Counted from the stretch's first letter, positions 2,220 through 53,513 are shown. The stretch: DNA of 64,000 nt from a bacterium (GCA_028820935.1 JAPPHZ010000029.1:151437-215436); one strand, 5' to 3'. Notes: generated by a model not told the origin, from the sequence alone. Numbers and translations are program-made.

Positions 2220-2229
2220 GACTTCCTCC

Positions 2230-3246: not shown

Positions 3247-3350
3247 CCCCGACCAGTCCTACAACGGGTCGCCCGGCCAGAGCCTGAGGGTTGCGACCGC
3301 GGCGTGATGGATCAACGCGCCGCGGTCACATGACCGGAGAGCCGCTCGGA

Positions 3351-5339: not shown

Positions 5340-6002
5340 TTAGACCGGCCAGCTCCGCATGTGATAGGCGTCGTCCCAGAACATCCACTCGTAGCGCATG
5401 CCGAGGCGCCACTTCTCGAGGAGCCCATCGAGGTCGTCCTGTTCGAGGCCGACGGTAAGCCGGTCGACGGCGGCGCGGAAGTCGTCCATCAGGTCGTGGT
5501 GGATCTTGCTGCCGTAGTACTCCATCCAGGACTCGCGGCGCTCTTCGCCGATGTTCCCCGATACCTGCTCGCCGATGAGGTCGTATGTCCAGGGGCAGGC
5601 TACGAAACTGGCCAGCCAGTCAATCGTGCGCCCGTCGAGCGCGTTGTACCACATGTGGTACGTGTACCCCCTGCAGGCCGGCGCCATGGGCGGCAGGTTG
5701 TCCGGGTCGCCTCCGAAGCTCTTCAGCAGGTCGCCCTGCCGTTCGTCGCTCGGCTCGAGGTTCCAGTCGCGGGTGAGCAGGTCGAAAGTCTCCTTGTCGG
5801 GCGCCTTTGCCGCTGCAACCAGCCGGCACCTGTAAACGGCGTCGACATACTGGAGGTTCTGTTCGAAGCAGAAGCGGAGCACCTCGTCCGGGAGAGTCCC
5901 CGCTTCGAGTTCAACGAGGAAGGGATGGCTCAAGATGGCGTCCCAAACGTCGCCGGTGTTATCCCAAAACCACTGTGCCCGGCTTGATGCCTGATCACCC
6001 AT
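5340..6002 (-). CDS. tenA: TenA/THI-4/PqqC-family protein (thiaminase II-like aminopyrimidine aminohydrolase).
   Basis: C-terminal 220 aa of the long ORF: MGDQASSRAQWFWD...HPFLVELEAGTLPDEVLRFCFEQNLQYV. The N-terminal 247 aa of the ORF is antisense of the SDR gene and was trimmed to the ATG at 6002. Confidence 0.75.
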   Translation of the reverse strand: MGDQASSRAQWFWDNTGDVWDAILSHPFLVELEAGTLPDEVLRFCFEQNLQYVDAVYRCRLVAAAKAPDKETFDLLTRDWNLEPSDERQGDLLKSFGGDPDNLPPMAPACRGYTYHMWYNALDGRTIDWLASFVACPWTYDLIGEQVSGNIGEERRESWMEYYGSKIHHDLMDDFRAAVDRLTVGLEQDDLDGLLEKWRLGMRYEWMFWDDAYHMRSWPV

Positions 6003-6080
6003 GGGCCTCTCCTCTCGTGTACCCGGTGTGAATCGTAGCTGGTAGGTTGCCACGTTGAGAGTCAGGACGGGAGGGCTCGG

Positions 6081-6842
6081 ATGTCCGTGCTTCCGGGAAG
6101 GAGGGCGGTGGTCACCGGAGCCGCGTCGGGCATCGGTGCGGCGACAAGCCGACGGTTCGCCCGCGAGGGAGCCTCCGTTGCTCTGGTGGATCGCAATGTG
6201 GATGGCGTGGCTCGTGTAGCCGACGAGATTCGTTCGGCAGGGGCGACCGCTGTTCCCGTTCCAGCTGATCTGGCTGTGGACGCAGATGTGGACCGTGCGA
6301 TTGAGGAGTCGGTGCGCGGCCTCGGCGGGATCGACATCCTGGTGAACTGTGCCGGGGTGGGTCAGCATCCCAAGCCCATCGAGGAGACAGATGATGCCGA
6401 ATTCGACCTCATCTTCTCCGTGAATGTTCGGAGCGTGTTCCTCATGATCCGGGCGGCGCTTCCCCATCTGGCGCAGGCGAGCGAGGCGGTCATCGTCAAC
6501 ATCGCGTCGAACATCTCGATCCGGCCCCGTCCCGGATACGCGGCCTACACGGCGAGCAAGGGAGCGGTGGCGTCGCTCACCCGGAGCCTGGCACTCGAGC
6601 TCGCCCCAAGGAACATCCGGGTCGTGGCGCTGTGCCCGGCGGCTTCGGATACCCCGATGCTGGTGGAGTTCATGGGCGGTCAGAACACCACCGAGAGCCG
6701 GGAGGCGATCGCCGAGGCGATCCCGATGGGGCGCCTGGTGCAACCGGACGAGGTGGCCGCCGTGGCCGCGTGGGCGGCGTCGGAGGATGCCCGGATGGTC
6801 ACCGGAGAGCTGATCTCCGTGGACGGCGGCCGGGGCCTCTGA
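6081..6842 (+). CDS. SDR-family oxidoreductase (FabG-like).
   Basis: Glycine-rich NAD(P) motif VVTGAASGIGAA. Classical SDR length of 253 aa. Confidence 0.85.
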   Translation: MSVLPGRRAVVTGAASGIGAATSRRFAREGASVALVDRNVDGVARVADEIRSAGATAVPVPADLAVDADVDRAIEESVRGLGGIDILVNCAGVGQHPKPIEETDDAEFDLIFSVNVRSVFLMIRAALPHLAQASEAVIVNIASNISIRPRPGYAAYTASKGAVASLTRSLALELAPRNIRVVALCPAASDTPMLVEFMGGQNTTESREAIAEAIPMGRLVQPDEVAAVAAWAASEDARMVTGELISVDGGRGL

Positions 6843-7214
6843 CGACTAACCCAGTTGCGGCGCGCCGACCGAGTGAGGCGAACAGGCCACCCCCACGGTT
6901 GAGAAACCGCCCAGATCCACCGGGGGTCTTAGGGACCGTCCCGATCCTCCGCAGATACCAATCCATCGGGAGCCGCTCACGGCGCAAGCCTGGTTTCTCC
7001 ATGAGGCCGGGGCGACTCCCAAGCTGCATTCGGCGGATGGTGTCTTCCTGAAGGTCGTGGTCCGTTGGCAGGCGGTGCCGGTGTCAACGACCAACGCCGC
7101 CTCGGCATCGATCCCTCCGCGGTCCTCACCGTCCATGCGCGATGGGTTCCCGCGCCTGATGTGCTGGCCGGGCCGGCCGCCCGTGTTCGCCGGCCCGGAG
7201 CACGACCTCCGCCG

Positions 7215-17335: not shown

Positions 17336-18144
17336 CGTTCGCCAATCGTGGTTCTGCTGGCGGCCATGAAGGCCAGACTCGTCGTAAGTATCAGCATCAC
17401 TGTACCGATAGCGTTCAGCGTCGGGTCGATGCCTTTCAGCACCCTTCCGTACATCACGAGCGGCAACGTCTTGTCCTGCCCGGCTGTGAAGAAGGCGATC
17501 ACGAAGTCATCCACCGAGATCGCCGCCGCCAGGAGCATGGCGCCTATGACGGCCGGCAGGATCAGGGGGAGCGTGACGGTACGGAACGCGTACCAGCGTG
17601 TGGCCCCGAGGTCCTGGGCCGCTTCCAGAAGGCCGAACCGGAAGCGTTCGAGAGAGGCGCCGATGATCAGGAATACGAACGGCAGCGCGATGAGAGCATG
17701 GCCGAGGTTGGCGCTCCAGATGGAACGCCCCACGCCGATTTGCCTGTAGAAGACCGCCAGCCCGATCGCGTAGAGCAGTCCCGGGATGGCGAGCGGGCCC
17801 AGGGCCGTGGTGAGGAAAACGGTCCTCCAGCGGGCCGCCACCTTCAGTATTCCCAGGGCGGCGAGGAGTCCGAGCACTCCGGTGATGCCGGCGGTCACCA
17901 CCGCCGCCTGGACGCTGCGTCGGAAAGCCCTCAATACCAGGGTGTCGGTGAAGATCTCCTGGTACCAGCGGATCGAGATTCCGGCGAATGGGAAGCTCAG
18001 GCGGGGAGATGAGTTGAAGGAGAACGCGACCATGACCACCAGCGGCGAGAACAGGAAGACGAACACCAGCACCATGAAGGCGGCCGATCCCAGAGGACGC
18101 CGCCGCAAGCGCACCAACGTCCGGCGCCAATCCGGCGCGGTCAT
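17332..18144 (-). CDS. ABC transporter permease (PotC-like).
   Basis: Hydrophobic multi-TM protein. Start trimmed to MTAPDWRR... (ATGA overlap with the upstream permease stop). Confidence 0.75.
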   Translation of the reverse strand: MTAPDWRRTLVRLRRRPLGSAAFMVLVFVFLFSPLVVMVAFSFNSSPRLSFPFAGISIRWYQEIFTDTLVLRAFRRSVQAAVVTAGITGVLGLLAALGILKVAARWRTVFLTTALGPLAIPGLLYAIGLAVFYRQIGVGRSIWSANLGHALIALPFVFLIIGASLERFRFGLLEAAQDLGATRWYAFRTVTLPLILPAVIGAMLLAAAISVDDFVIAFFTAGQDKTLPLVMYGRVLKGIDPTLNAIGTVMLILTTSLAFMAASRTTIGER

Positions 18145-19067
18145 CGCGTGAGCCGCTTCATCAGCGAGATGATGATGTAGGCGAACACGCCCATCGCCAC
18201 CATCAAGGTCATGGCCAGGGCCGCTCCCTGCGGCCATTCCAGGCTCTGGCCGAAGTAGAACTCGATCCGGTTACCTATCAGCAGGTCCTTGGTCCCGCCG
18301 AGAAGCCGCGGCGTCACCCATTCACCCAGTGTTGCTATGAAAACGAACGCAGTGGCCGCCCGCACCCCCCGCATCGACAGCGGCAGGACGATCTGGCGGG
18401 CCGCCCGGATTCTCGAAGCGCCCAGGTCCCGAGCCGCCTCGATCACGTGCGGTGACACGTTCTGCATCGCCGCATAGATCGGGAGCACACCCAGGGGAAT
18501 CAGGAAGTTCACGAGCGAGGCCCCCACCGCGAACATGCTGTTCAGGAGGTAGCGGATCGGCTCCTCGATGATGCCCATCCCGATGAGGGTCTGATTGATG
18601 ACGCCCTGGCGGCCCAGGATGCTCCGCCAGGCGTAGATGCGAACGATGTAGCCGCCGAAGAGGCTTACAAGGATCAGAAAGTAGAGGAGCTGTCGCTTCG
18701 CCCGGAAGACGAAGTTGAGGACGTAGGCACACGGGAAGCTGACGAGGAGAACGATGACCGTCAGGATGCCCGCCACCTGGATGGTCCGCAGTCCGAGCCG
18801 GGCGTGGATGGAGGTTGTCAGGACTTCGGCGTAGTTCGACAGCACGAAAGCGGGCACCGGATCGAAGTCGACCAGCCGGAAGAAGCTCATGGCCAGCAGG
18901 CCGGCCAGGGGAACGAGGAACAGCAGCGCGAAGTACGCTGACCCCGGGAACAGCTGCAACCAGGCGGCCACTCTCCGGCGGCGATCGATCGCGACGAGGA
19001 CCTCGCCGGATGTTCCCCGTCGGGAACGCTTCCTGCGAGGTCCTCGCCTCGTGACGCTCTCCGTCAT
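18141..19067 (-). CDS. ABC transporter permease (PotB-like).
   Basis: Multi-TM protein with an EAA-type loop (IEAARDLGASRIRAARQIVLP). Confidence 0.8.
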   Translation of the reverse strand: MTESVTRRGPRRKRSRRGTSGEVLVAIDRRRRVAAWLQLFPGSAYFALLFLVPLAGLLAMSFFRLVDFDPVPAFVLSNYAEVLTTSIHARLGLRTIQVAGILTVIVLLVSFPCAYVLNFVFRAKRQLLYFLILVSLFGGYIVRIYAWRSILGRQGVINQTLIGMGIIEEPIRYLLNSMFAVGASLVNFLIPLGVLPIYAAMQNVSPHVIEAARDLGASRIRAARQIVLPLSMRGVRAATAFVFIATLGEWVTPRLLGGTKDLLIGNRIEFYFGQSLEWPQGAALAMTLMVAMGVFAYIIISLMKRLTR

Positions 19068-35369: not shown

Positions 35370-36473
35370 CTAGTAGCGGACCAGGCTCCGGATGCCTTCT
35401 CCGATTTCGAACTGGTGGAGAGCGCCGTTGATGTCCTCCTGGTCGATCTCGGCGGTGATCAGTTCGTCCAGCAGGAGTTTGCCGGCCTTGTACAACTCGA
35501 CATAGCGGGGGATGTCGAAGGCGGGCCGCAGCGAGCCGTAGTAGCAGCCCAAGAGCTTGCGCTCGTCGATCAGAAGGCCCATGTCGACGGTGAGTTCGGA
35601 CCCGTACGGTGCGACGCCCACCTGCACGGCCGTGCCTCCCCGGCAGAGCGAACGGACCGCAGTGGCCACGGTCTCGGGATCGCCGATCGCCTCCACCGCC
35701 AGGTCCACCCCGAGTCCGCCGGTCATGGCGATGAGGGTCTCGGCCGTCTCCACTTCGGAGGCGTTCACCGTATGGGTGGCGCCGAAGCGTCGGGCGGCTT
35801 CGAGCTTGTGCTCGGCGATGTCGACTCCGATTATCTTCCCGGCGCCCCGCAGCCGCGCTCCCTGGATGGCGTTGAGTCCGATGCCCCCGCAGCCGATGAC
35901 GGCGACGCTGTCGCCGAGTTGCACGTTGCCCGTGTTGACGACAGCTCCGACCCCGGTGGAGACGGCGCAGCCGATCACGGCGAGGGGCTCGAGGGGAACA
36001 CCGTCCGGGACCGGGATCGCTGCCGGAGCCGGCACGGTCACCTCCCGAGAGTAGGTGGACAACATCATGCTGTGGCTGATCGTCTCGCCGTTGCTGCCCG
36101 TGAACCGGCTGGTCCAGTCTTGCAACCGCCCCTCCCAGGAGGGTCCGATCGCGGTCATGCACAGCGCAGGGCGTCCTGTGGCGCAGTACCTGCATGTGCC
36201 GCACGGCGCAACCCACGAAAGGACCACACGGTCGCCGACCTGGACGGTCGAGGGGCCGGGTCCGACGGCGGCCACGATGCCGGCTCCCTCGTGGCCGCAG
36301 ATGAGCGGCAGGTTGACGGGAATGTGACCCTGCACCAGATGCAGATCGCTGTGGCACACGCCGCTTGACACCATCCGGACGAGAACCTCGTTGGCCTTGG
36401 GTTCTTCCAGTTCGACCTCTTCGACGACCAGCGGAGTGTTGAACTCGCGCAGCACCGCTGCTCTTGTCCTCAT
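35370..36473 (-). CDS. Zn-dependent alcohol dehydrogenase (copy 1 of a tandem pair).
   Basis: GVCHSDLH motif and structural-Zn cysteines (CGTCRYC). About 88% amino-acid identity to 37098..38201. Confidence 0.85.
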   Translation of the reverse strand: MRTRAAVLREFNTPLVVEEVELEEPKANEVLVRMVSSGVCHSDLHLVQGHIPVNLPLICGHEGAGIVAAVGPGPSTVQVGDRVVLSWVAPCGTCRYCATGRPALCMTAIGPSWEGRLQDWTSRFTGSNGETISHSMMLSTYSREVTVPAPAAIPVPDGVPLEPLAVIGCAVSTGVGAVVNTGNVQLGDSVAVIGCGGIGLNAIQGARLRGAGKIIGVDIAEHKLEAARRFGATHTVNASEVETAETLIAMTGGLGVDLAVEAIGDPETVATAVRSLCRGGTAVQVGVAPYGSELTVDMGLLIDERKLLGCYYGSLRPAFDIPRYVELYKAGKLLLDELITAEIDQEDINGALHQFEIGEGIRSLVRY

Positions 36474-37097: not shown

Positions 37098-38201
37098 CTA
37101 GTAAAGGACCAGGCTCCGGATGCCTTCTCCACGGTCGAACTGGTTGAGCGCGTCGTTGATGCCGTCCTGGCCGATCTCGGCGGTGATCAGTTCGTCTACC
37201 AGGAGTTTGCCGGCCTGGTACAACTCGACATAGCGGGGGATGTCGAAGGTAGGCCGCAGCGAGCCGTAGTAGCACCCGAGGAGCTTGCGCTCGTCGAGCA
37301 GCAGGGTCATGTCGACGGAGACCTCGGTTCCGTATGGCGCTATCCCGACCTGCACGGCCGTGCCGCCCCGGCGAAGCGAACGGACCGCAGTGGCCACGGT
37401 CTCGGGATGGCCGATCGCCTCTACCGCCAGGTCCACCCCGAGTCCGCCGGTCATGGCGATGAGCGTTTCCGAGGCCTCCACCTCCGAAGCGTTCACGGTA
37501 TGGGTGGCGCCGAAACGTCGGGCCGCTTCGAGCTTTTCCTCGCTGATGTCGACTCCGATTATCTTCCCGGCGCCCCGCAGCCGCGCTCCCTGGATGGCGT
37601 TGAGTCCGACACCCCCGCAGCCGATGACGGCAACGCTGTCGCCGAGTTGCACATCGCCGGTGTTGACGACAGCTCCGACCCCGGTGGAGACGGCGCATCC
37701 GATCACGGCGAGGGGCTCCAGCGGAACATCGTCCGGAACCCTGATCGCGGCCGAAGCCGGCACGGTCACCTCCCGGGAGAAGGTCGACAGCATCAGGTGG
37801 TGGCTGATGGTTGTCCCGTCGGGGGCTGTGAAGCGGCTCGTTCCGTCGTAGAGTTGGCCCTCGTAGGAGGGTCCGATGGCGGTCATGCACAGGGCCGGGT
37901 TTCCTGTGGCGCAATAGTTGCAGTTGCCGCACGGCGAGACCCAGGAGAGGACCACCCGGTCGCCGACCTGCACGGTGGACGGTCCGGGCCCTACCGCGGT
38001 CACGATCCCGGCGCCCTCGTGGCCGCAAATGATCGGCAGGTTCACGGGGATATGGCCCTGCACGATATGCAGATCACTGTGGCATACCCCGCTCGACACC
38101 ATCTCCACCGAGACCTCGTTGGCCTTGGGTGCTTGCAGCTCGACCTCCTCGACCACCAACGGGGTGTTGAACTCGTGAAGTACCGCCGCTCTCGTTCTCA
38201 T
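37098..38201 (-). CDS. Zn-dependent alcohol dehydrogenase (copy 2).
   Basis: Same motifs as copy 1. Confidence 0.85.
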   Translation of the reverse strand: MRTRAAVLHEFNTPLVVEEVELQAPKANEVSVEMVSSGVCHSDLHIVQGHIPVNLPIICGHEGAGIVTAVGPGPSTVQVGDRVVLSWVSPCGNCNYCATGNPALCMTAIGPSYEGQLYDGTSRFTAPDGTTISHHLMLSTFSREVTVPASAAIRVPDDVPLEPLAVIGCAVSTGVGAVVNTGDVQLGDSVAVIGCGGVGLNAIQGARLRGAGKIIGVDISEEKLEAARRFGATHTVNASEVEASETLIAMTGGLGVDLAVEAIGHPETVATAVRSLRRGGTAVQVGIAPYGTEVSVDMTLLLDERKLLGCYYGSLRPTFDIPRYVELYQAGKLLVDELITAEIGQDGINDALNQFDRGEGIRSLVLY

Positions 38202-42895: not shown

Positions 42896-43564
42896 TCAGA
42901 CCGGCCAGGCCCTCTCGTTGTAGGCCATGTCCCAGAACATCTGCTCCAGGCGGCTGCTGGTGCGGAAGATGTCCTCGATCCTTGCCAGGTCCGAACTGCT
43001 CATGCCCTCGCAGAGTCGTTCGAGCTTGTCCTTGACCTCTTCGAGCGTGTCCCAGTACTCCTGCCCTCCGAAGAACTCGATCCAGGTGCGGTAGACCTGG
43101 TGATCCGGAGCATCGGCCAGCCGTTCCCTGCCGATCTCCCCGTAGCTCCAGGCGCAGGGTGTCAGCGAGGCCATGATGTCGGCGGCTCGACCCTCGTAGG
43201 CCACGGTCAGCAGGTGGCGGGTGTAGGCCAACGTCCCGGGCTCCATCACCACCTCTTCGGTCGCCCCCGGAACCATCTGGCGGACCTCGTCGAGCAGCTG
43301 GCGGTTCTTGGGTAGCTCGAAGTCGACGATGTTGCTCACGATGGCGGCGAAGTCCCGCATGGTGTCCTCATCATCGGCCTTCGCCACACCGAGGGCCATC
43401 GCCCTCGCCAGCTCCCTGAGGAAGACGATGTTCTGGCCGATGTAGAAGGCGAACTTCCGCTCCGGAAGGGTGCCGGCGGTCAGTTCATCCACGAACGGAT
43501 GGCTGTGCAGCTCGTGCCAGATGTCCCTGCAGCTGTCTCGGAGCTTTTCGCAAACGCTGCTCAT
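42896..43564 (-). CDS. tenA: TenA/THI-4/PqqC-family protein (second paralog).
   Basis: MSSVCEKLRDSCRDIWHELHSHPFVDELTAGTLPERKFAFYIGQN. Start trimmed to 43564 (ATGA overlap with the upstream stop). Confidence 0.75.
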   Translation of the reverse strand: MSSVCEKLRDSCRDIWHELHSHPFVDELTAGTLPERKFAFYIGQNIVFLRELARAMALGVAKADDEDTMRDFAAIVSNIVDFELPKNRQLLDEVRQMVPGATEEVVMEPGTLAYTRHLLTVAYEGRAADIMASLTPCAWSYGEIGRERLADAPDHQVYRTWIEFFGGQEYWDTLEEVKDKLERLCEGMSSSDLARIEDIFRTSSRLEQMFWDMAYNERAWPV

Positions 43565-45159
43565 CGACCGGCACCTCCTCCGATGCGCCGGCCGCCGCCG
43601 AAGCCTGCCGGACCGGTCGTGGTGTTGTACTCGTATCCAAGGGCCATGGGCTCCTCCGCCCACGGGCGGTAGAAGTCGAACAGGTACGGCTCGACCTCGA
43701 ACGCCAACTCGGCCCACCGGGCCCATGGCTCCTCCAGATCGAACAGCCCCCTCGCTATCGCCTCGTTGTACTCGTCCCGGATCTGCTGCTCGTTGATCGT
43801 GGTAATCACGCCGTTGTCGAGGACCACCTTCCCGGCGACCAGCACCGTCTCGATGTCCGTGCCGTCGGCCCGGTCCAGGATCACGTCGAGCACCGGGCTC
43901 ACGTAGAACCGCGCCGGTCTCTCGAACACCCGCTTGCGGTCGAGGATGAGCAGGTCGGCGTCCTTACCCACCGCCAGGCTGCCGATGCGGTCCTCGGCGC
44001 GGGCGGCCCGCGCCCCGGACGTGGCCGCGGATCGCAGGAGCGCCTCGGAGTTGAGCCGGCCGTGCTCGGGTTCCGGCCCTCGGGGCAGCCGCTGGAGATA
44101 AGCGCCCAGGCGAACCTCCTGGAGCATGTCGTCCCGCTCGGAGAAGGAGATGGCATCGGTACCGAACGCCAGCCCTCCACCTGCGTCAAGGATGTCGCGG
44201 ACGCGGCACACCCCGGTGCTCAGCCGGAGGTTCGAGCCGGGGTTGCTCGCCGCCACGGCGCCGCTGTCGGCCAGGATCTCGATGTCACGGTCGGTGGCCC
44301 ACACGAAGTGTGATAGCGACACATCCGGCCCGAGGAGGCCGATGTCATCCAGCCGTTGCATGGCCGTGACGCCGAAGCGCCGGATGTTGTACTGCATCTC
44401 CGACCGGGTCTCCAGGCAATGGGTCATGATCCCCGTGTCGTAGTCGGTGGCGATGGCCCGGCAACGGCGGTAGAGGTCGTCGGACACCGCCGGGGTCCAG
44501 TCCGGCGCCAGCAGGACGCGAAGCCTGTCGTCCCGGCGGTCCCAGGTCGCGGCTGCATCCTCATAAGCGGCTATGACGTCGTCGCTCGGCAGGGCGTAAC
44601 CCATCGGTGAGTTACGCACCTCCTCGGCCAGCCCTTCGGGCAGTCGGGCCAGGAAGTCGTCGTTGGCCTCGTGGACGTAGAGGTTCTCATCGCGCAGGGT
44701 GATCCCGAGCCCGGTACGCATTCCCAGGTCCTCGTACGCCTGCAGGGCGTTGTCCATGCCGAAGTTCTTAGGACCGGGGCGGCCGTAGAAGGCATCGACC
44801 GTGGTCGTGATTCCTCCCCGGACCGCGGTCATGAGCGTGACAAGGATCGCCTTGTACATGATTTCCTCGTCCATCGGCTTGAAGACCGGATGGACGTAGA
44901 TGTTGGCCCGCTCGAAGAGCATCTCCCAGAGCCCGGGGCCCAGCGCCGACTCGGAGTGGTAGTGGGAGGCCACGAAGCCGGGCATCACGAAGTGGTCCTG
45001 CGAGCCGAGGATGCGGTCGAACGGCCCCTTGGTCTCGAGTTCGGCCCTCGGTCCGGACTCCACGATCTTCTTGCCCTCGACGATCAATGCGCCATCGGTG
45101 ATGAACGCTTCGTCGGCCAGCGTGACCACCGGGTTGCCCACGATGAGATATCGCGACAT
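43561..45159 (-). CDS. TRZ/ATZ-type amidohydrolase (amidohydrolase-1 superfamily; chlorohydrolase / aminohydrolase-like).
   Basis: PGFVASHYHSE metal-binding HxH region. 532 aa. Confidence 0.75.
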   Translation of the reverse strand: MSRYLIVGNPVVTLADEAFITDGALIVEGKKIVESGPRAELETKGPFDRILGSQDHFVMPGFVASHYHSESALGPGLWEMLFERANIYVHPVFKPMDEEIMYKAILVTLMTAVRGGITTTVDAFYGRPGPKNFGMDNALQAYEDLGMRTGLGITLRDENLYVHEANDDFLARLPEGLAEEVRNSPMGYALPSDDVIAAYEDAAATWDRRDDRLRVLLAPDWTPAVSDDLYRRCRAIATDYDTGIMTHCLETRSEMQYNIRRFGVTAMQRLDDIGLLGPDVSLSHFVWATDRDIEILADSGAVAASNPGSNLRLSTGVCRVRDILDAGGGLAFGTDAISFSERDDMLQEVRLGAYLQRLPRGPEPEHGRLNSEALLRSAATSGARAARAEDRIGSLAVGKDADLLILDRKRVFERPARFYVSPVLDVILDRADGTDIETVLVAGKVVLDNGVITTINEQQIRDEYNEAIARGLFDLEEPWARWAELAFEVEPYLFDFYRPWAEEPMALGYEYNTTTGPAGFGGGRRIGGGAGR

Positions 45160-45283
45160 ATGTCCCGTCCTTTCGGCTCGTGCCTCCCCGGGCCTGCACC
45201 GGTGAAGCGCTGACGTCTCTCCCGGACCTGCCGATATGGTCCGTCATGGCGAGCTTACTTCGGGCTTGGGAACGGCGTCTTGA

Positions 45284-45370
45284 GGAGGGTGCCGGAAAAG
45301 ACGAGCAGGGGTTGGCCCGCGATCCCGCGACCTGGGTTTCGTTGCCGGTGTCGGGCATGGCGGACGGTGC
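45284..45370. repeat. Diverged third copy (C3) of the intergenic element (GGAGGGTGCCGGAAAAGACGAGCAGGGGTTGGCCCGCGATCCCGCGACCTGGGT...).
   Basis: About 75% identity to the left arm plus spacer of C2. The right arm is not recognisable. Confidence 0.45.
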
Positions 45371-45416
45371 TCGGGTTAGGGTATCGACGTTGCCCGGAGT
45401 CCAGAGGAGGGCGCCA

Positions 45417-46418
45417 ATGCAGATCGATATGCACACCCATGTGCTCGCATTGGCGGCCGATCCCGAGTTCTCGGTGGAATACGGCCGGGAGGGTTCGCTC
45501 TGCATATACCGCAGTGCGGGGTCCGTGCCGGCGCATCGCATGCCCACGGAGGACGAGTGGGAGGAGAGTGGCTTCTCCCGAAAGGGTTGGCCGATCATCG
45601 GTGGCGCCGAATCCATGCGGGACCACCCCGGATTCGACAGGATCGTCCTGCTGTCCGTGTCGCCGCAGTGGCTCGACGGCCGTTTGATAGGAACGGTCGA
45701 CCCGACGGGCATCAGCGGCGTCGAGGGTCCGCCTCACCCCGAGAAGTGCAACGACTACATAGCCGGGCTCGTGCGGCAGGACCCGGAGACCCTGGTCGGC
45801 TTCGCTTCGGTGAACCCCGCCTACCAGGGACCGGAGGCGGCGGTGGAGGAACTCACGCGGGCGGTCCGCGAGCTGGGATTGTCCGGAGTGAAGCTCTACC
45901 CGATGTACCAGCACTGGTCGCCCGACGATCGCGAGCTGGCATTTCCCGTCTACCAGTGCGCTCTCGACCTGGGGATCCCGGTGATGTTCCACCAGGCCGG
46001 ATCAACGCGTATCGACGCCTCCCTCGGCCTGGGGCGGCCCGCGCTCCTCGACGATGTCGGCCGGGAGTTCCGCGACCTGGTGGTGATAATCGCCCACATG
46101 GGAATCCCGTGGCAGGACGAGGCGCTCTTCCTGCTCACCAAGCACCCCAACTTCTACGGCGAGCTCTCCTACCTGATCGCGGCCCTCAGCCCGAGGGAGC
46201 TGTTCACGTTCCTACACAAGGCAGAGCCCTTCTTCGTTCCCCTGGAGAAGCTGTTCTTCGGATCGGACTATCCCGGGTTCCTCTACGACCCGGTGGTACT
46301 GCGCGACAAGCTCCTCACCATCAACGACCATGCCGAACCGCTGGGACTCGATCCCATACCCCGGTACAAGCTCGAGGGCATCATGGGAGACCACGCGGCC
46401 GCAGTCCTCGGCTGGTGA
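45417..46418 (+). CDS. Amidohydrolase-2 family metal-dependent hydrolase.
   Basis: MQIDMHTHV start with a GAGGAGG RBS 7 nt upstream. IIAHMGIPWQDE and FFGSDYP motifs. 79 upstream codons were trimmed. Confidence 0.75.
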   Translation: MQIDMHTHVLALAADPEFSVEYGREGSLCIYRSAGSVPAHRMPTEDEWEESGFSRKGWPIIGGAESMRDHPGFDRIVLLSVSPQWLDGRLIGTVDPTGISGVEGPPHPEKCNDYIAGLVRQDPETLVGFASVNPAYQGPEAAVEELTRAVRELGLSGVKLYPMYQHWSPDDRELAFPVYQCALDLGIPVMFHQAGSTRIDASLGLGRPALLDDVGREFRDLVVIIAHMGIPWQDEALFLLTKHPNFYGELSYLIAALSPRELFTFLHKAEPFFVPLEKLFFGSDYPGFLYDPVVLRDKLLTINDHAEPLGLDPIPRYKLEGIMGDHAAAVLGW

Positions 46419-46467
46419 CGCAGCAGGTACAGCCGGTGGCTCCTCCTGGTTCCTGGCCGTCCGCCGG

Positions 46468-47442
46468 CTACTTGCTACTGGGTCGGTGGTGGTGTAGTCG
46501 GTAGACGCGGCGGGTGTTCTCTCCGAGTATTTGGTCGATTTCGTGTTGGGGGATGCGGTAGCCCAGTTGTTTGGCCCATTCGGGGAGCATGCGGAATTGG
46601 TCTACCCATTGTTTGAGGGTTAGGGAGACTTCTATGCCGGCCATGTCGGAGCCGAAGAGGATGCGGTCGGGTCCGATGCGGTCTCTCATCCATACGATTT
46701 TGCGGACTAGTTCGTCGGGGGAGATCCAGTGTTGCCATAGGCTCATGTCGAGGTGGACGTTGGTTTTGTAGATGGCGACGGAGATGGCTTCATGCGCCCA
46801 GGTTTCGTAGCGGGCGGAGTGGCCGAGGATGAAGCGTAGGTCGGGGAAGTCGGCGGCGGCTGAGTCGACGTAGATGGGGTGTCCGTATTTTGATTTGTGT
46901 CGTCCTGCGGAGTGTCCTTGGTGGAGGAGTACGGGTAGGTCTCTTTCGAGGAGGAACCGGTAGAGGGGGTAGACGACGTTTTCGTCGTCGGGGTAGAAGC
47001 CGTTGGTGGGATACAGTTTGAGGCCTATGGCGCCCCATTGGTCTACTGCGGTGGTGAGTATTTCGAGGGCGTCGGGGCGTCGGGGGTCTACTCCGCAGAA
47101 GGTGTAGAGGCGTCCGGGGTGTCTTTTGGTGGCTTCGGCGCAGAGCCGGTTCTTTTCTGCGATGGGGATGACGCCTTCTTCGCCCAGGCCGACACCGTGG
47201 TCCATGGGCATCATCACCGACGCGTCGACCCCGGCCTCGTCCATGCGAGCAACCGCCTTATCACCCGTGATGTCCGTAGCCTCCGCAACCCTCGCATGCA
47301 GGTAGGAGGGATCCGACTTGGGCGGGTCGTACCAGCGCACCTGCCTCGCCCATGAGGCATCCATGCCGGACCTCAGGTTGACAGGGTTCCAATCATCACC
47401 CCGGATGTGCATGTGGCAATCCACCACGAGAGCCCCGCTCAT
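46468..47442 (-). CDS. Amidohydrolase-2 family hydrolase (copy A). The C-terminal 260 aa are encoded by an identical 783-bp block shared with copy B.
   Basis: VVDCHMHI motif. ATGA overlap with the upstream SDR stop. Confidence 0.75.
   Translation of the reverse strand: MSGALVVDCHMHIRGDDWNPVNLRSGMDASWARQVRWYDPPKSDPSYLHARVAEATDITGDKAVARMDEAGVDASVMMPMDHGVGLGEEGVIPIAEKNRLCAEATKRHPGRLYTFCGVDPRRPDALEILTTAVDQWGAIGLKLYPTNGFYPDDENVVYPLYRFLLERDLPVLLHQGHSAGRHKSKYGHPIYVDSAAADFPDLRFILGHSARYETWAHEAISVAIYKTNVHLDMSLWQHWISPDELVRKIVWMRDRIGPDRILFGSDMAGIEVSLTLKQWVDQFRMLPEWAKQLGYRIPQHEIDQILGENTRRVYRLHHHRPSSK
46483..47265. repeat. 783-bp block that is 100% identical to 49780..50562 (direct repeat, offset 3297 bp).
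   Basis: Line-by-line identity was checked at several points. The block has lower GC and A/T-ending codons. Confidence 0.85.
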
Positions 47443-48215
47443 GCTGTCCATCCACCGTCGACGAGGAGGTTCTGCCCGGTCAGGTAGGAACTCATACCCG
47501 ATACGAGGAACAGGGCCGCGCCGACCATCTCCTCCGGCCGGGCGATGCGTCCCATGGGCGTCCGCTGGAGGATGGCCGACACGTTGTCCTCGACGGCGAG
47601 ATAGTCACGGGTCATTTCGGTTCTCACCCAAGCAGGACTGATGCAGTTGAGCCGCACCTTGGGCGCCCAATGGTCGGCGAGCACGGCGCTCATGTGGATC
47701 ATGGCCGCCTTGCTCGCGCTGTAGGCGACCTGGGCGCCGTCGCTCACCACCCCTGACAGCGATGCAATGTTGACGATCGAGCCTCCATTCCCATCCAGCA
47801 TGCGGCGACCGACCTCCCTGGTCAGGAAGAAGGCGCCCCGGAGGTTCACGTCGAACAACGCATCCCATTCCGCCGGACTGATCTCCAGCGCGGAGGAGCG
47901 GTTCGTGGCCCCGGCGGAGTTGACCAGGCTGTCCAGCCCGCCCTTCCACCGCCACGCCGCCGCTACCGCCGCCGCCGTGGCCTCGAGATCGGCGATGTCC
48001 GCAACGAGCGGAAGAAACTCGCCCCCTCCGGCGCGTATCTCGTCCCCGAGATCGTCAAGGGCGTCGGCGGAGCGGGCCAGGCCCACCACAGAGGCGCCGG
48101 CCGCGGCCAGACCGATGGCTATGGATCGCCCGATTCCCCTGCTGGCGCCGGCCACCAGCGAGGTGGCCCCCGCTTGATCGGGCCGCAGGGTCTCGAATTG
48201 CCCCCAATCCGCCAC
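47439..48215 (-). CDS. SDR-family oxidoreductase.
   Basis: LVAGASRGIGRSIA glycine motif and a YxxxK region (YSASK). Confidence 0.85.
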   Translation of the reverse strand: MADWGQFETLRPDQAGATSLVAGASRGIGRSIAIGLAAAGASVVGLARSADALDDLGDEIRAGGGEFLPLVADIADLEATAAAVAAAWRWKGGLDSLVNSAGATNRSSALEISPAEWDALFDVNLRGAFFLTREVGRRMLDGNGGSIVNIASLSGVVSDGAQVAYSASKAAMIHMSAVLADHWAPKVRLNCISPAWVRTEMTRDYLAVEDNVSAILQRTPMGRIARPEEMVGAALFLVSGMSSYLTGQNLLVDGGWTA

Positions 48216-48276
48216 GAGCGCCCTCCCTGACCTCCGATAAGCTGGGATCGGATCTCAACCAGCGAGGAAAACCCTA

Positions 48277-49719
48277 ATGGCCTTGTTCGACGAGTATGAA
48301 GACTACGACGCGCTCGGCCTGGCCGCCCTCATCCGCGACCGCCGGACCACGCCCGGAGAGTTGCTCGACGTGGCGCTGGATCGGGTAGCGACCAGGAATC
48401 CCGGCGTCAACGCGGTCATACACCTCATGGAGGACGCGGCCAGGGAGACCATCTCCCGCGGACTTCCTCCCGGGCCGGTATCGGGGGTTCCCTTCATGCT
48501 CAAGGATCTTCACGCGCTCTGCGCCGGCGAACCCACTAGCAACGGATCCCGCCTCTACCAGGGGAACGTCGCGGACCATGACAGCACCATCATCGCCCGG
48601 TACCGAGAGGCCGGCCTACTCCTCTTCGCCAAGACCAACACGCCCGAGGTCGGGATCAGCGGCACCACCGAGCCGGTTCTGCACGGGCCGACGCTAAACC
48701 CATGGGACAGGTCCCGCAGCGCCGGAGGGTCGAGCGGCGGAGGCGCGGCGGCGGTGATCACCGGCATGGTGCCCGTCGCGCAGGCAACCGACGGGGGCGG
48801 CTCGATCCGCAGTCCGGCCGCCAACTGCGGGCTGTTCGGTCTGAAACCGACCAAAGCACGGACACCGGCCGGTCCCGACGCGGGGGAGGGATGGAGCGGC
48901 CTTGCCACGTACCATGTCGTCTCCCGCACGGTGCGGGACAGTGCCGCCTTCCTCGACGTGGCCCACGGACCGGAACCCGGCGACCCCTACACCGCGCCCG
49001 TACCCGATCGCGACTTCCTGGCCGAGGTCGGCAGGGACCCGGGCAGGCTCCGCATCGCTCTGTGGACCGAGGGCCTCTGCGGGGAACCCGTCGACCCGGA
49101 GTGCGTGCTGGCTACGGAACGGGTCGCCGGCCAGCTGGCGGAACTCGGTCACACGGTCACCCCCGCCGTGCCTCCGGTCTCGGGGGCCGAATCCCGCCGA
49201 GCGATAACCACGATCCTCGTGGGGCATACCGCCAACCACGTCACGCTACGGCTGAATGCGCTGGGCCGTGCCCTCCGGAGCGACGATCTGGAGAACATAA
49301 CCCGGCTGGCCGCCGAGGAGGGGAACCGTCTGTCGGCGCGTGACTACGCCAACGCCTTGGTGATGGCTCATCGCACCGGCCGTCAGATGGCCGGGTTCTT
49401 CGACGAGTACGACATCATCCTGAGCCCCACCCTCGCCGATCCCCCCCTCCCGCTCCGCGGCCTCGACATGATGGGGGACGATCTGGACGTCTACATGGAC
49501 AGGCTGTGGGGGCACATGGCCTTCACCCCGCTCTACAACCTGAGCGGTTGCCCCGCCGCGAGCCTTCCGATGCATATGACACCTGACGGTCTCCCCGTAG
49601 GCGTCCAGATCGGCGCCGCCTTCGGCAACGAGGCCCTACTGTTCCGCCTCGCCGCCCAACTCGAAGAGGCCGACCCGTGGTGGGATCGCCGGCCCCCACC
49701 GCTGAACACGGAAAACTGA
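48277..49719 (+). CDS. Amidase-signature-family amidase (GatA/AtzE/AtzF-like).
   Basis: The GGSSGG amidase-signature motif and the Ser-cisSer-Lys region are present. 480 aa. Confidence 0.85.
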   Translation: MALFDEYEDYDALGLAALIRDRRTTPGELLDVALDRVATRNPGVNAVIHLMEDAARETISRGLPPGPVSGVPFMLKDLHALCAGEPTSNGSRLYQGNVADHDSTIIARYREAGLLLFAKTNTPEVGISGTTEPVLHGPTLNPWDRSRSAGGSSGGGAAAVITGMVPVAQATDGGGSIRSPAANCGLFGLKPTKARTPAGPDAGEGWSGLATYHVVSRTVRDSAAFLDVAHGPEPGDPYTAPVPDRDFLAEVGRDPGRLRIALWTEGLCGEPVDPECVLATERVAGQLAELGHTVTPAVPPVSGAESRRAITTILVGHTANHVTLRLNALGRALRSDDLENITRLAAEEGNRLSARDYANALVMAHRTGRQMAGFFDEYDIILSPTLADPPLPLRGLDMMGDDLDVYMDRLWGHMAFTPLYNLSGCPAASLPMHMTPDGLPVGVQIGAAFGNEALLFRLAAQLEEADPWWDRRPPPLNTEN

Positions 49720-49764
49720 CTCTCCGATCACGGGTAGCCGGTTCTCACCGGCCACCGTTTCTGG

Positions 49765-50733
49765 TCACCGTCCGCTGTTTCGGTGGTGGTGTAGTCGGTA
49801 GACGCGGCGGGTGTTCTCTCCGAGTATTTGGTCGATTTCGTGTTGGGGGATGCGGTAGCCCAGTTGTTTGGCCCATTCGGGGAGCATGCGGAATTGGTCT
49901 ACCCATTGTTTGAGGGTTAGGGAGACTTCTATGCCGGCCATGTCGGAGCCGAAGAGGATGCGGTCGGGTCCGATGCGGTCTCTCATCCATACGATTTTGC
50001 GGACTAGTTCGTCGGGGGAGATCCAGTGTTGCCATAGGCTCATGTCGAGGTGGACGTTGGTTTTGTAGATGGCGACGGAGATGGCTTCATGCGCCCAGGT
50101 TTCGTAGCGGGCGGAGTGGCCGAGGATGAAGCGTAGGTCGGGGAAGTCGGCGGCGGCTGAGTCGACGTAGATGGGGTGTCCGTATTTTGATTTGTGTCGT
50201 CCTGCGGAGTGTCCTTGGTGGAGGAGTACGGGTAGGTCTCTTTCGAGGAGGAACCGGTAGAGGGGGTAGACGACGTTTTCGTCGTCGGGGTAGAAGCCGT
50301 TGGTGGGATACAGTTTGAGGCCTATGGCGCCCCATTGGTCTACTGCGGTGGTGAGTATTTCGAGGGCGTCGGGGCGTCGGGGGTCTACTCCGCAGAAGGT
50401 GTAGAGGCGTCCGGGGTGTCTTTTGGTGGCTTCGGCGCAGAGCCGGTTCTTTTCTGCGATGGGGATGACGCCTTCTTCGCCCAGGCCGACACCGTGGTCC
50501 ATGGGCATCATCACCGACGCGTCGACCCCGGCCTCGTCCATGCGAGCAACCGCCTTATCACCGTTACCGTCGGCGGCCACACTCCAAGCCTTCGCGAAGT
50601 ACTCGGGGTCGGACTTGGGAGGGTCGTACCAGCGCACCTGCCTAGCCCAGGATTCGGCCATACCCGAGGACACGTTCATCGGGTTCCAATCGGGTTCCAT
50701 GATGTGCATATGGCAGTCCACCACCAAGGGCAT
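49765..50733 (-). CDS. Amidohydrolase-2 family hydrolase (copy B).
   Basis: MPLVVDCHMHI start with an AGAGGAG RBS upstream. The C-terminal 260 aa are identical to copy A. Confidence 0.75.
   Translation of the reverse strand: MPLVVDCHMHIMEPDWNPMNVSSGMAESWARQVRWYDPPKSDPEYFAKAWSVAADGNGDKAVARMDEAGVDASVMMPMDHGVGLGEEGVIPIAEKNRLCAEATKRHPGRLYTFCGVDPRRPDALEILTTAVDQWGAIGLKLYPTNGFYPDDENVVYPLYRFLLERDLPVLLHQGHSAGRHKSKYGHPIYVDSAAADFPDLRFILGHSARYETWAHEAISVAIYKTNVHLDMSLWQHWISPDELVRKIVWMRDRIGPDRILFGSDMAGIEVSLTLKQWVDQFRMLPEWAKQLGYRIPQHEIDQILGENTRRVYRLHHHRNSGR
49780..50562. repeat. Second copy of the identical 783-bp block.
   Basis: See 46483..47265. Confidence 0.85.
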
Positions 50734-50735
50734 GG

Positions 50736-52292
50736 TCACTCCTCTCTTGAACCGCTCCCCGTCAGGGGCGGATGCTTGGCGTTGTATACGGCCGCCGGCT
50801 CCAACGGTGTCCGGGCCCACGGGCGGTAGAAGTCGAGGACGTAGGGGTCCACCTCCCATCCCAGGCGCACCGACTCCGGGTCTGGGTCGCCTCCCATGAT
50901 GCGCGCAGCCGCTTCGGTGACGTAGTCATGCACCCGGCTGTGCGGAATGCGGGTGAACTCGCCGTCGTCGAACACGATCTCTCCGGCGACCATGACCGAG
51001 GCCACGTCGGCGGAAGAGGCTCGGTCGAGGATCACGTCCAGGGGCGGGGTGGACGCGTAGCGTTCCTCCGGCCAGAACAAGCGGTCGCGGCTCAATACGA
51101 CCAGGTCGGCTTCCTTGCCGACGCCGAGCGAGCCGAGTTCGGACTCGAAGCGGATCGCCCGGGCGCCGTTCTCCGCCGCGGCTCGCAGGACGGCTTCCGA
51201 ATCGAGGCGCCCGACCTCGAGCAATCCCGGCGTTCTCTGCAGGTAGGCGGCGAGGCGGAGCTCCTGCAAGAAGTCGCCGGAGTCGGAGAAGGAGATGTTG
51301 TCGGTGCCGAAGCACACCCGCCCGCCGCGGTCCATGATGTCCCTCACCCGCGCTATCCCGGTGCTGAGCCGGAGGTTGGAGCCGGGATTGTTGACGGCCA
51401 CCGCTCCCGTATCGGCGAGTATCGAGATGTCCTCGTCGGTCGCCCAGACGAAATGGGAACACGACACGTCGGGCCCCAGCACCCCGAGATCCGCCAGGCG
51501 GCGCATGGCGGTCTTGCCGTCGCTCTCCAGCGCGTACATCATCTCGGAGCGGGTCTCGAGCACGTGCGTCATGATCCCCGTTCCGAACTCATCGGCGAGG
51601 CGGCGGTTCCGGACGTAGAGCTCGTCCGAGCACGCCGGCGTCCAGTCCGGGGCGAGCAGTATCCGGATGCGGCCGTCCCGGTGATCCCACCGCGAGACCA
51701 GGTCCCGGTAGGTGGCGAACACCTCTCCGGTCGGCCACGCATAACCCATCGCCGATGCGCGCACGCGGGCAGCCAGATCCTCCGGGAGCATGGCGAGGAA
51801 CGACTCGTCGTCGGCGTGGACCAGGGTGTTCCGGTCCCTCGTCACCACACCGAGGGCCACCCGAACTCCGAGGTCCCGGTAGGCGGCCAGTATGGCGTCG
51901 TACCCGAAGTTGGGCAGACCGGACCGGCCGTAGTTGAGGTCGACGAACCCGGTCTGGCCTCCCCGCACGTCGTTCATGACGTTGGCCAGCACCGCGTGGT
52001 AGAGGTCCTCCTCGGTGACAGGGGTCCACATGCCATGCAAGTGGACGTTGGCCCGCTCGAAGATGTACTGGGCCATGCCCCTGCTCAGGGCCGAGCCCGA
52101 GTGATAATGACCGTTGATGAAGCCCGGAAGGACGGCATGGCGGGGCGATCCGACCCGCCGGTCGAAGGGACCGAGGCCCTCCAGATCGCGCCTCTTCCCG
52201 ATCCCTACGACGGTCCGATCCTCGACGACGAGCGCGCCGTCCCGGACATAACCCGGGGAAGCATCACCGAGGACGACGAGGGGATCTCCCAT
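50736..52292 (-). CDS. TRZ/ATZ-type amidohydrolase (paralog of 43561..45159).
   Basis: LPGFINGHYHSGS. Start trimmed to MGDPLVVLG (52292) by alignment to the paralog N-terminus. Confidence 0.7.
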   Translation of the reverse strand: MGDPLVVLGDASPGYVRDGALVVEDRTVVGIGKRRDLEGLGPFDRRVGSPRHAVLPGFINGHYHSGSALSRGMAQYIFERANVHLHGMWTPVTEEDLYHAVLANVMNDVRGGQTGFVDLNYGRSGLPNFGYDAILAAYRDLGVRVALGVVTRDRNTLVHADDESFLAMLPEDLAARVRASAMGYAWPTGEVFATYRDLVSRWDHRDGRIRILLAPDWTPACSDELYVRNRRLADEFGTGIMTHVLETRSEMMYALESDGKTAMRRLADLGVLGPDVSCSHFVWATDEDISILADTGAVAVNNPGSNLRLSTGIARVRDIMDRGGRVCFGTDNISFSDSGDFLQELRLAAYLQRTPGLLEVGRLDSEAVLRAAAENGARAIRFESELGSLGVGKEADLVVLSRDRLFWPEERYASTPPLDVILDRASSADVASVMVAGEIVFDDGEFTRIPHSRVHDYVTEAAARIMGGDPDPESVRLGWEVDPYVLDFYRPWARTPLEPAAVYNAKHPPLTGSGSREE

Positions 52293-52364
52293 CACCAGCG
52301 TCCGGCTCACCGTGGTCCTCCCACCCTGGTCCTCCTTGGGTGACCTGACCATAATGCCACCAGA

Positions 52365-53513
52365 GTGAGGTTGCTGGAACACGAGTCCAAGGCCCGCCTG
52401 GCCAGGGCCGGGGTGAGGGTTCCACGGGGCGCCGTCGCCACCACCCCGGAACAGGCCGGGTCTGCCGCGCCGGCTCTGGGCCGCGAGGTCTTCGTCAAGG
52501 CGTTGGTCCCGGCGAACCGGCGGTCGAAGAACAACGGCGTGATCGGCCCCATCGGGCCGGACGGCGTGGCGCGAGCGGCGCATGAGCTGCTCGCCTCCCG
52601 GATCCTGGGCCATCGGTGCCGGTCGGTATACGTGGAGGAGGCTGTCGCCGTGGCCGGAGAGCTCTATGCCGCCTTCTCGTGGAGTCCTCGCGGCCCCAGG
52701 GCCACCGCATCCGCCGCAGGAGGTGTGGACATCGAGAACTCGGGCGGTGCGATGGTCCATCTTGACCTGGAGGGGTTGGCGGACCTACCCCGAGGCGGGG
52801 CGGAGCGTCTCTGGGGGCGGGCGCTGGGCGACTCCCGGGTCCCGACTGCGCTGGTCGACCTGACCGTGTCCGCAGCCGGCGTCTTCTTCGACGACGCGCT
52901 GCTGGTGGAGCTGAACCCGCTGGCCAGGTCGGCCGACGGGTCGTTCACCGCAGTCGGCGCGCTGATCGAAATGGACGGCAGCGCCCTCTTCAGGCATCCG
53001 GAACTCCGATGGCGTCCCGACGGACTCAGCGAGCGGGAGGCCGTCGTGGCAGAGGCCGACCGCCGGCTTCCGGGCGCCTCGGTACGTTACGTGGAGCTCG
53101 ACGGTGATACGGGGCTGCTGGTGGGCGGCGGCGGCGCCGGGCTGTACCAGCACGATCTGCTGGTCCGAGCGGGGGTGCGACCGGCCAACCACAGCGACCT
53201 GGGCGCCGGGGTATCGGCCGAGAAGCTGGACGTGCTGATCGGGGCCGTGCTCGGCCACCCGAACCTCTCGCGCCTGCTGGTCAGCTTCAACATCCTCCAG
53301 CTGGCCCCGTGCGACCTCATCATGGAGAGACTCCTGGCGGGCCTGGACAGGATGCGAGGCCGGGACGGCCCGATCCCGGTGGTGGTCCGGCTCGAGGGCC
53401 TCAACGCCGAGCGGGCCCGGAGGCTGGCGGCAGGACGCGCCGGTTTGCGGTACCTTCCCTCCGGAGCGAGCCTGGGAGAGGCCGTGGACACCCTGGTCAG
53501 GATCAGCCGGTGA
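52365..53513 (+). CDS. Succinyl-CoA synthetase beta-subunit-like ADP-forming CoA ligase (ATP-grasp plus ligase-CoA domain).
   Basis: LLEHESKARLARAG, LVELNPLARSADGSFTAVGALIEMDGSALFRHPEL and VVVRLEGLNAERARRLA align with SucC. Confidence 0.75.
   Translation: MRLLEHESKARLARAGVRVPRGAVATTPEQAGSAAPALGREVFVKALVPANRRSKNNGVIGPIGPDGVARAAHELLASRILGHRCRSVYVEEAVAVAGELYAAFSWSPRGPRATASAAGGVDIENSGGAMVHLDLEGLADLPRGGAERLWGRALGDSRVPTALVDLTVSAAGVFFDDALLVELNPLARSADGSFTAVGALIEMDGSALFRHPELRWRPDGLSEREAVVAEADRRLPGASVRYVELDGDTGLLVGGGGAGLYQHDLLVRAGVRPANHSDLGAGVSAEKLDVLIGAVLGHPNLSRLLVSFNILQLAPCDLIMERLLAGLDRMRGRDGPIPVVVRLEGLNAERARRLAAGRAGLRYLPSGASLGEAVDTLVRISR

Follow-up and report, generated by a model that had tools for sequence, protein, structure and literature searches.

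[quoted passage not shown] The skew of the repeat falls almost entirely on silent sites, alongside a slight change in amino acid composition, and the paralogs evolve in concert in four genomes. The description of GRINS dates from 2021 and concerns mainly the polyketide synthases (PKS) of Streptomyces (PMC8256042). The kind of element is already known, and what is new is an example in a non-PKS gene of sponge-associated Acidimicrobiia. The window, i.e., the whole stretch of DNA analyzed here, comprises 64,000 nt (GCA_028820935.1 JAPPHZ010000029.1:151437-215436; positions are counted from its first letter), has a GC content of about 66.6%, and shows a high coding density. The locus contains the following features:

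43561..45159, neighboring gene, Amidohydro_1 (Pfam)
45180..46418, neighboring gene, Amidohydro_2, a more distant relative of genes A and B (Pfam)
46468..47451, minus strand, gene A, Amidohydro_2 (PF04909) TIM-barrel metal-dependent hydrolase of 327 aa (ORF; Pfam E = 2e-32, residues 10-319)
46483..47265, minus strand, probable GRINS copy 1, the 783-nt block, gene A codons 63-323 (exact identity run with copy 2; mean absolute GC skew 0.304 and TA skew 0.254 in 150-nt windows)
46483..47184, minus strand, intensely skewed part of copy 1, codons 90-323 (change point after codon 89; third-position counts; codon tables)
47185..47265 (copy 2: 50482-50562), minus strand, 5' end of the block (codons 63-89), shared by both copies but without skew (of the 24 free codons in 63-90, 13 end in G or T)
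47266..47451 (gene B: 50563-50733), minus strand, diverged N-terminal 62 codons of gene A, with normal codon usage (65.5% nucleotide identity between A and B)
47439..48215, neighboring gene, SDR (Pfam)
48277..49719, neighboring gene, amidase (Pfam)
49765..50733, minus strand, gene B, paralog of gene A, 322 aa from the ATG at 50733 (ORF; Pfam E = 2.8e-34)
49780..50562, minus strand, probable GRINS copy 2, the 783-nt block in gene B (exact identity run with copy 1; mean absolute GC skew 0.302 and TA skew 0.250)
49780..50481, minus strand, intensely skewed part of copy 2 (same sequence at an offset of 3297; the scan found a skewed stretch at 49741-50490)
50736..52760, neighboring gene upstream of gene B, Amidohydro_1 (Pfam)

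Genes A and B are both full-length matches to the Pfam family Amidohydro_2 (PF04909), and the homologs of gene A in Acidimicrobiia MAGs have 80-98% identity. The mechanical ORF of gene B extends to 50859, where it would overlap the 3' end of the upstream gene (ORF ending at 50736). The ATG at 50733 is the likely start, and orthologs such as L003 (322 aa) begin at the equivalent MPLVVDCHMH methionine. The original prediction had reported the two copies as identical and the genes as mosaics, and both statements hold: the copies, 3,297 nt (~3.3 kb) apart, are 100% identical, a value that assembly or polishing could have slightly inflated, and each gene joins a diverged N-terminus to the identical C-terminal three-quarters. 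A diversity-generating retroelement target, which would show a template/variable repeat pair differing at adenines and a nearby reverse transcriptase, is not supported: the copies are identical, each encodes a complete portion of a conserved enzyme, and the intervening and adjacent genes encode an SDR, an amidase, and amidohydrolases.

The block had been noted for its unusual codon usage, and it is indeed unlike every other gene in the window, with a GC content of 59.8% (66.6% for the window as a whole). The nature of the anomaly is different from the one first described. It is a strand skew, with A and C on the sense strand and G and T on the complementary plus strand, and not a drop in GC3. 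The latter is 0.73 in the block, 0.81 in the N-terminus of gene A, 0.71 in the N-terminus of the gene B ORF, and 0.77 to 0.88 in the other genes. Hence, the contrast with G/C-ending surroundings that the original prediction drew is only modest in a sliding GC3 analysis (0.73 versus ~0.8-0.88), and the signal emerges from separate counts of the four bases. The third positions of the block are A 0.24, C 0.62, G 0.11, and T 0.03, while the other genes of the window have A3 of 0.05-0.11 and G3 of 0.29-0.43. Among the 222 non-forced codons of gene A codons 91-323, 9 end in G or T, for a background of 0.436 computed from 18,573 codons of the 49 other window genes (binomial P = 1.8e-41). In any 100-codon window of these 49 genes the fraction is never below 0.27.

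The codon tables separate what stands of the "A/T-ending codons" reported initially. The A-ending codons are confirmed, including the listed GAA, CAA, AAA, CTA, GTA, GGA, and AGA, whereas T-ending codons are depleted (7 of 261 in the block) and the listed TTG and TTT are absent. Over the whole block, GAA is used 13 times (GAG 2), CAA 8 times (CAG 0), and AAA 8 times (AAG 2), and CTA, GTA, GGA, AGA, CGA, and ATA are all present. From codon 90 onward the corresponding counts are 13 to 1, 8 to 0, and 8 to 1. In the same part, CCC (14 codons) is the sole proline codon and ACC (9) the sole threonine codon, leucine is encoded by CTC (16), CTA (6), and CTG (2) with no TTG, and there are three AGA codons. 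The residual G-ending codons are mainly ATG and TGG, and T-ending codons are nearly nil. The sense third positions of codons 90-323 thus amount to 18 G, 151 C, 63 A, and 2 T, which gives a GC3 skew of -0.79 and a TA3 skew of -0.94.

GRINS were defined by Nivina et al. (2021) as duplicated regions of more than 500 bp, with more than 80% identity and mean absolute GC and TA skews above 0.15, measured in 150-nt windows with a 30-nt step (PMC8256042). The block is an exact repeat of 783 nt with 100% identity between copies. The mean absolute GC and TA skews are 0.304 and 0.254 in one copy and 0.302 and 0.250 in the other, whereas the remainder of the window averages 0.083 and 0.112. Signed values for the plus strand in 150-nt windows are approximately +0.30 (GC) and +0.25 (TA). 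Only two stretches of the 64 kb have both skews above 0.15, and these are the two copies of the block. The GC and TA skews are coupled, with r = 0.61 over 45500-51500 versus 0.08 window-wide; within the block r is ~0 because the sign of the skew never changes there. Typical GRINS show coupled GC and TA skews that are strongest at third positions, a shift between Pro/Thr/His/Gln and Gly/Val/Cys/Trp, both polarities, a link with gene conversion, and, in occasional cases, skewed regions present in single copy (PMC8256042). The traits outside the definition are found here too, namely the coupled skews, the third-position maximum, the amino acid shift, and paralogs that are closer to each other than to orthologs. 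Although most GRINS host genes are actinobacterial PKS, the elements also occur in various phyla and gene families (PMC8256042).

Two further observations concern skews and repeats elsewhere in the window. A plus-strand AT skew without a matching GC skew is found at 18001-19000 (+0.27) and at 2001-3000 (+0.16), unlike the coupled skews of GRINS blocks. A second tandem pair of paralogs on the minus strand encodes zinc-type alcohol dehydrogenases (ADH_N plus ADH_zinc_N; 35370-36473 and 37098-38201). These are 85.7% identical over their full length and 0.89-0.93 mid-gene, with no intense skew (mean absolute GC skew of 0.05-0.11). Since this pair is 86% identical but unskewed, it is a duplicated region and not GRINS.

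The skew is largest at third positions, and it is visible as well at synonymous first positions (CTN and AGA here; TTG in orthologs with the mirror pattern described below). Codon positions 1 and 2 are slightly shifted in the same direction as position 3. Proteins of the A/C type are enriched in Pro/Thr/His/Gln and depleted in Gly/Val/Cys/Trp, and those of the G/T type show the reverse: the two groups stand at 44 and 38 in the genes of the window and 32 and 47 in the mirror ortholog L010. The compositional boundary had been proposed to coincide exactly with the identity boundary, and this is the case at one end only. At the 3' end, skew and identity both stop within 5 codons of the stop codon. 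At the 5' end, the maximum-likelihood change point falls after codon 89, at position 47184, i.e., 81 nt inside the identical block. Codons 63-89 are therefore shared by both copies yet unskewed, and belong to a conversion tract that extends beyond the recoded zone.

The close homologs all belong to Acidimicrobiia, many of them labeled as sponge associated (Candidatus Spongiisociaceae and related MAGs), with further matches in marine and soil metagenomes. The A/C-only pattern, with the same starting codon, is found in at least 8 related genomes or contigs (L003-L006, L008, L015, L029, and L038) and is weaker in L007, L014, and L016. These carriers were assembled by different projects and with different technologies, so the skew is not an assembly artifact. 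Other orthologs are mirror images using only G and T (L009 and L010, which have 78-80% amino acid identity, L031, and L032): leucine is encoded by TTG, and GGG, GTG, CGG, and GAT are dominant. The G/T-type orthologs are seemingly single copy within the available 6-kb flanks, which suggests that a skewed gene can do without a partner close by. L030 and L001 combine the two polarities in a single gene, and L002 and L011-L013 are unskewed. In the two mosaics (L030:2419-3351 and L001:6001-6960), a G/T-type stretch of codons ~63-100 or longer is followed by an A/C-type stretch over the last 60-90 codons, so that the GC skew of one strand passes from +0.4 to -0.4. In a homolog from a soil metagenome (L043:3006-3940), the reading frame is lost after approximately codon 118, and both the third-position pattern and the translation break down, which suggests a frameshifted pseudogene or an assembly error. 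The genes flanking these orthologs are unskewed at every locus.

This diversity of states bears directly on the foreign origin that the original prediction had put forward, in which a C-terminal segment written in the codon dialect of a donor was recombined into a native gene and then copied to its paralog. The block is sharply unlike all 49 other genes of the window in composition and the genes are mosaic, as such an event would produce. Yet the bias is one between strands, leaving hardly any G or T at silent sites, and we found no donor with such genome-wide codon usage. A donor dialect also fits poorly with a pattern that is A/C-only here and in the related genomes, G/T-only in L009, L010, L031, and L032, and of both kinds in L030, always between unskewed neighbors. 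The closest relatives are Acidimicrobiia at both the DNA and the protein level, and the N- and C-terminal parts rank the same relatives by protein similarity, with no incongruence between them. The search for a donor lineage returned none, and the plasmid and phage collections searched gave no match. Given these results and the agreement with the GRINS definition, horizontal acquisition is highly improbable, and the idea does not survive beyond the copying between loci, which is well supported (see below).

The two polarities also weigh on explanations based on the transcript. Selection might favor an unstructured, A/C-rich mRNA whose NNC and NNA codons form Watson-Crick pairs with G34 and U34 tRNAs and are efficiently expressed, and the skewed sense strand does fold weakly (-0.25 versus approximately -0.43 kcal/mol per nt in unskewed orthologs). 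On the other hand, orthologs with 78-80% amino acid identity show the reverse G/T preference, with mRNA no less stably folded than that of normal orthologs. Moreover, the bias begins at codon 90 rather than at the start codon, where structure matters most, and affects no other gene of the 64 kb. We consider this kind of selection very unlikely. The finding of either polarity in orthologs of one enzyme suggests a driver acting at the level of the DNA duplex rather than through the mRNA, the choice of tRNA, or an overlapping frame.

The last of these, an overlapping gene, would require that third positions avoid T (and G) to keep sense frame +2 open for an Arg/Pro-rich peptide. With A or C at position 3, no codon of frame +2 begins with T, and this frame is open for ~260 codons in L004, L005, L006, and L015; in the window, it contains ORFs at 46475..46738 and 46790..47038. 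However, L003 and the two window copies have a stop in this frame at codon 220, and L008 has one at codon 200. The avoidance of stops needs no avoidance of G, the G/T-type orthologs open an antisense frame instead, with an unrelated peptide (L010), and the product is of low complexity, with no Rfam match or other signal. Such a gene is scarcely credible, and the openness of frame +2 is a by-product of the A/C third positions. The search for structured RNA over 44000-53000 gave no Rfam family at the gathering threshold. The Arg/Pro/Thr-rich shadow ORFs, all on the minus strand in frame +2, include, besides the two already mentioned, one at 49745-50035. In L010 the in-register antisense frame is entirely free of stops, and gene callers could misannotate such shadow ORFs.

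The copying of the block to the second locus, part of the original prediction, is borne out by the four genomes in which both paralogs are available (the window, L005, L008, and L006 plus L015, which are on one contig). In the skewed part, identity is 99.7-100% between the paralogs of one genome but 90-97% between copies from different genomes. The N-termini, in contrast, cluster by paralog type across genomes (80-95% identity among A-type and 87-93% among B-type sequences), and those of A and B are 62-68% identical within a genome in three of the four; the value is 85.5% in L008, in which the tract reaches codon 34. The grouping of N-termini by type implies that the A/B duplication is older than these lineages. 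The 5' end of the identical tract varies, being at codon 34 in L008, 63 in the window, ~90 in L006/L015, and ~100 in L005, where, as in L006/L015, the equivalent of codons 63-89 still differs between paralogs. The 3' end is constant at approximately codon 323, where the homology between the loci ends. These sequence comparisons show that the paralogs undergo concerted evolution in the skewed part by repeated gene conversion. The L008 genes (2713-3672 and 6001-6972) have a hybrid N-terminus, A-type to approximately residue 33 and then B-type, and tract length thus varies by lineage.

The region of L005 syntenic with window 51135-44000 is 94% identical to it. The two differ by 6.0% in the skewed blocks and by 5.4% outside them, indicating that the block evolves neither unusually slowly nor unusually quickly. 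Recent substitutions point in no clear direction: parsimony in the A/C clade gave 12 K>M and 28 M>K changes, and in the comparison of the window with L005 by class of change, the enrichment of A<->C changes had a Fisher P of 0.07, with the copies counted twice. Contigs of short-read MAGs break at residues ~80-109 and start at residue 251, as expected from a collapsed repeat; those ending or starting at these residues are L018, L019, L020, L022, L023, and L026, and both ends of L018 lie at the repeat. A third, partial amidohydrolase copy was found in the CBDCOH010000002.1 genome (L015:7658-7861), ~700 nt downstream of the full gene. It covers residues 244-311 with 84% amino acid identity and may be what is left of a further copy or of a past recombination.

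The skew lies inside the conversion tract and stops at the same 3' end, so it was most likely made by recombination or co-selected with it. In this clade, the converted but unskewed codons 63-89 count against this reading, as do the G/T-type orthologs that seem to have no partner nearby, and the link between skew and recombination may be one of either cause or consequence. The authors of the GRINS description proposed that the skew promotes conversion and that misincorporation driven by tautomers creates the skew; they called the origin and maintenance of GRINS unknown (PMC8256042). Later papers citing that description add no mechanism for the skew.

A purely replication- or transcription-linked deamination of single-stranded DNA, giving C>T and A>G changes as in mitochondria and with no role for recombination, would produce the observed keto/amino coupling, which is expected from the deamination of C and A. 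The polarity is also that of the weak replication-type skew seen across the window (GC3 +0.03 and TA3 +0.06 on the plus strand), although the skew of the block is 15 to 30 times stronger. The skews of the flanks have the same sign as that of the gene in most loci, with values that are tiny, phylogenetically nonindependent, and confounded by gene orientation. Three observations make this explanation unlikely. The skew is limited to ~700 nt of one gene with sharp edges, next to normal genes on the same strand. Both polarities are present inside one gene in L030 and L001, which argues against a simple cause in the direction of replication. Finally, C is preferred over A at four-fold sites, where the block has 14 CCC and no CCA, and 9 ACC and no ACA, in positions where unskewed orthologs use CCG and ACG, so that transitions alone cannot explain the end state.

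The preferred reading of GRINS homogenized by conversion could operate as follows. The C-terminal ~260 codons of two old paralogs, 3.3 kb apart, are repeatedly homogenized by nonreciprocal homologous recombination (gene conversion), and within the tract a strand-asymmetric substitution bias would have recoded almost every synonymous site, to A/C on the sense strand and G/T on the plus strand. For the source of this bias we favor, at somewhat less than even odds, DNA synthesis or heteroduplex repair that is tied to recombination or replication and in which one and the same strand would always be handled differently. Repair would miss the transitions that stem from A.C mispairs but remove G.T mispairs, and one strand would shift from G/T to A/C. 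Fixation would be limited to silent sites by purifying selection on the enzyme.

The identity of such a repair system is open to a more speculative proposal. The actinobacterial NucS/EndoMS recognizes only G/T, G/G, and T/T mismatches (PMC6159521, PMC11551767), and a Streptomyces nucS mutant shows strand-biased C>T and A>G transitions (PMC11109965). The dichotomy is chemically that of the skew, as keto.keto mismatches are repaired and amino.amino mismatches ignored, and in nucS mutants, too, the changes are strand biased. Being blind to A/C, A/A, and C/C, NucS would leave only A.C-derived transitions after repeated strand-specific conversion; the copied strand would drift to A/C and its partner to G/T. 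It is conceivable, if rather unlikely, that the keto/amino polarity of GRINS is the footprint of repair by NucS/EndoMS, whose presence in this host is putative. The link to GRINS is hypothetical, and a scheme built on transitions leaves the strong preference for C at four-fold sites unaccounted for.

These results provide a compact GRINS example outside natural-product genes, in an uncultivated lineage of sponge-associated actinobacteria. With orthologs in every state (unskewed, A/C-type, G/T-type, and mixed) and conversion ongoing in four genomes, it is a convenient comparative system, suited to dating the recoding, to separating cause and effect between skew and conversion, and to evaluating explanations based on repair. 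If NucS were responsible, this two-copy amidohydrolase family would offer a simple natural test system for the origin of GRINS. There are also practical consequences: GRINS-like blocks mimic horizontal transfer in codon-usage screens, fragment short-read assemblies (including those of these symbionts), and yield long spurious ORFs in other frames.

Strand splits of this kind are familiar from the replication-associated GC and TA skews and from the heavy/light asymmetry of vertebrate mitochondria, in which one strand is rich in G+T and the other in A+C, most clearly at silent sites. The block resembles them in the G+T versus A+C split. It differs in scale, because the former span replichores or genomes and are far weaker in bacteria (here ~0.03-0.06 versus 0.8-0.9 at third positions), while the block covers ~700 nt with sharp edges. 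The tufA/tufB genes and the rRNA operons are bacterial paralogs in concerted evolution by gene conversion. As in these systems, the identity within genomes is higher than between genomes and the tract is bounded by the loss of homology, but the classical cases lack the strand-asymmetric recoding of silent sites. The closest counterparts are the GRINS of Nivina et al. (2021), with which the block shares a length above 500 bp, an identity above 80% within the genome, intense and coupled skews with a third-position maximum, a functional protein that is still encoded, the amino acid shift, paralogs closer than orthologs, an actinobacterial host, and relatives that include both polarities and single-copy skewed regions. 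It departs from them in residing in two copies of a small single-domain amidohydrolase (PF04909) rather than in assembly-line PKS, and in a host that is an uncultivated, sponge-associated member of the Acidimicrobiia and not Streptomyces. Moreover, most PKS GRINS looked recent and cluster specific, whereas this element has been kept and homogenized across several related genomes.
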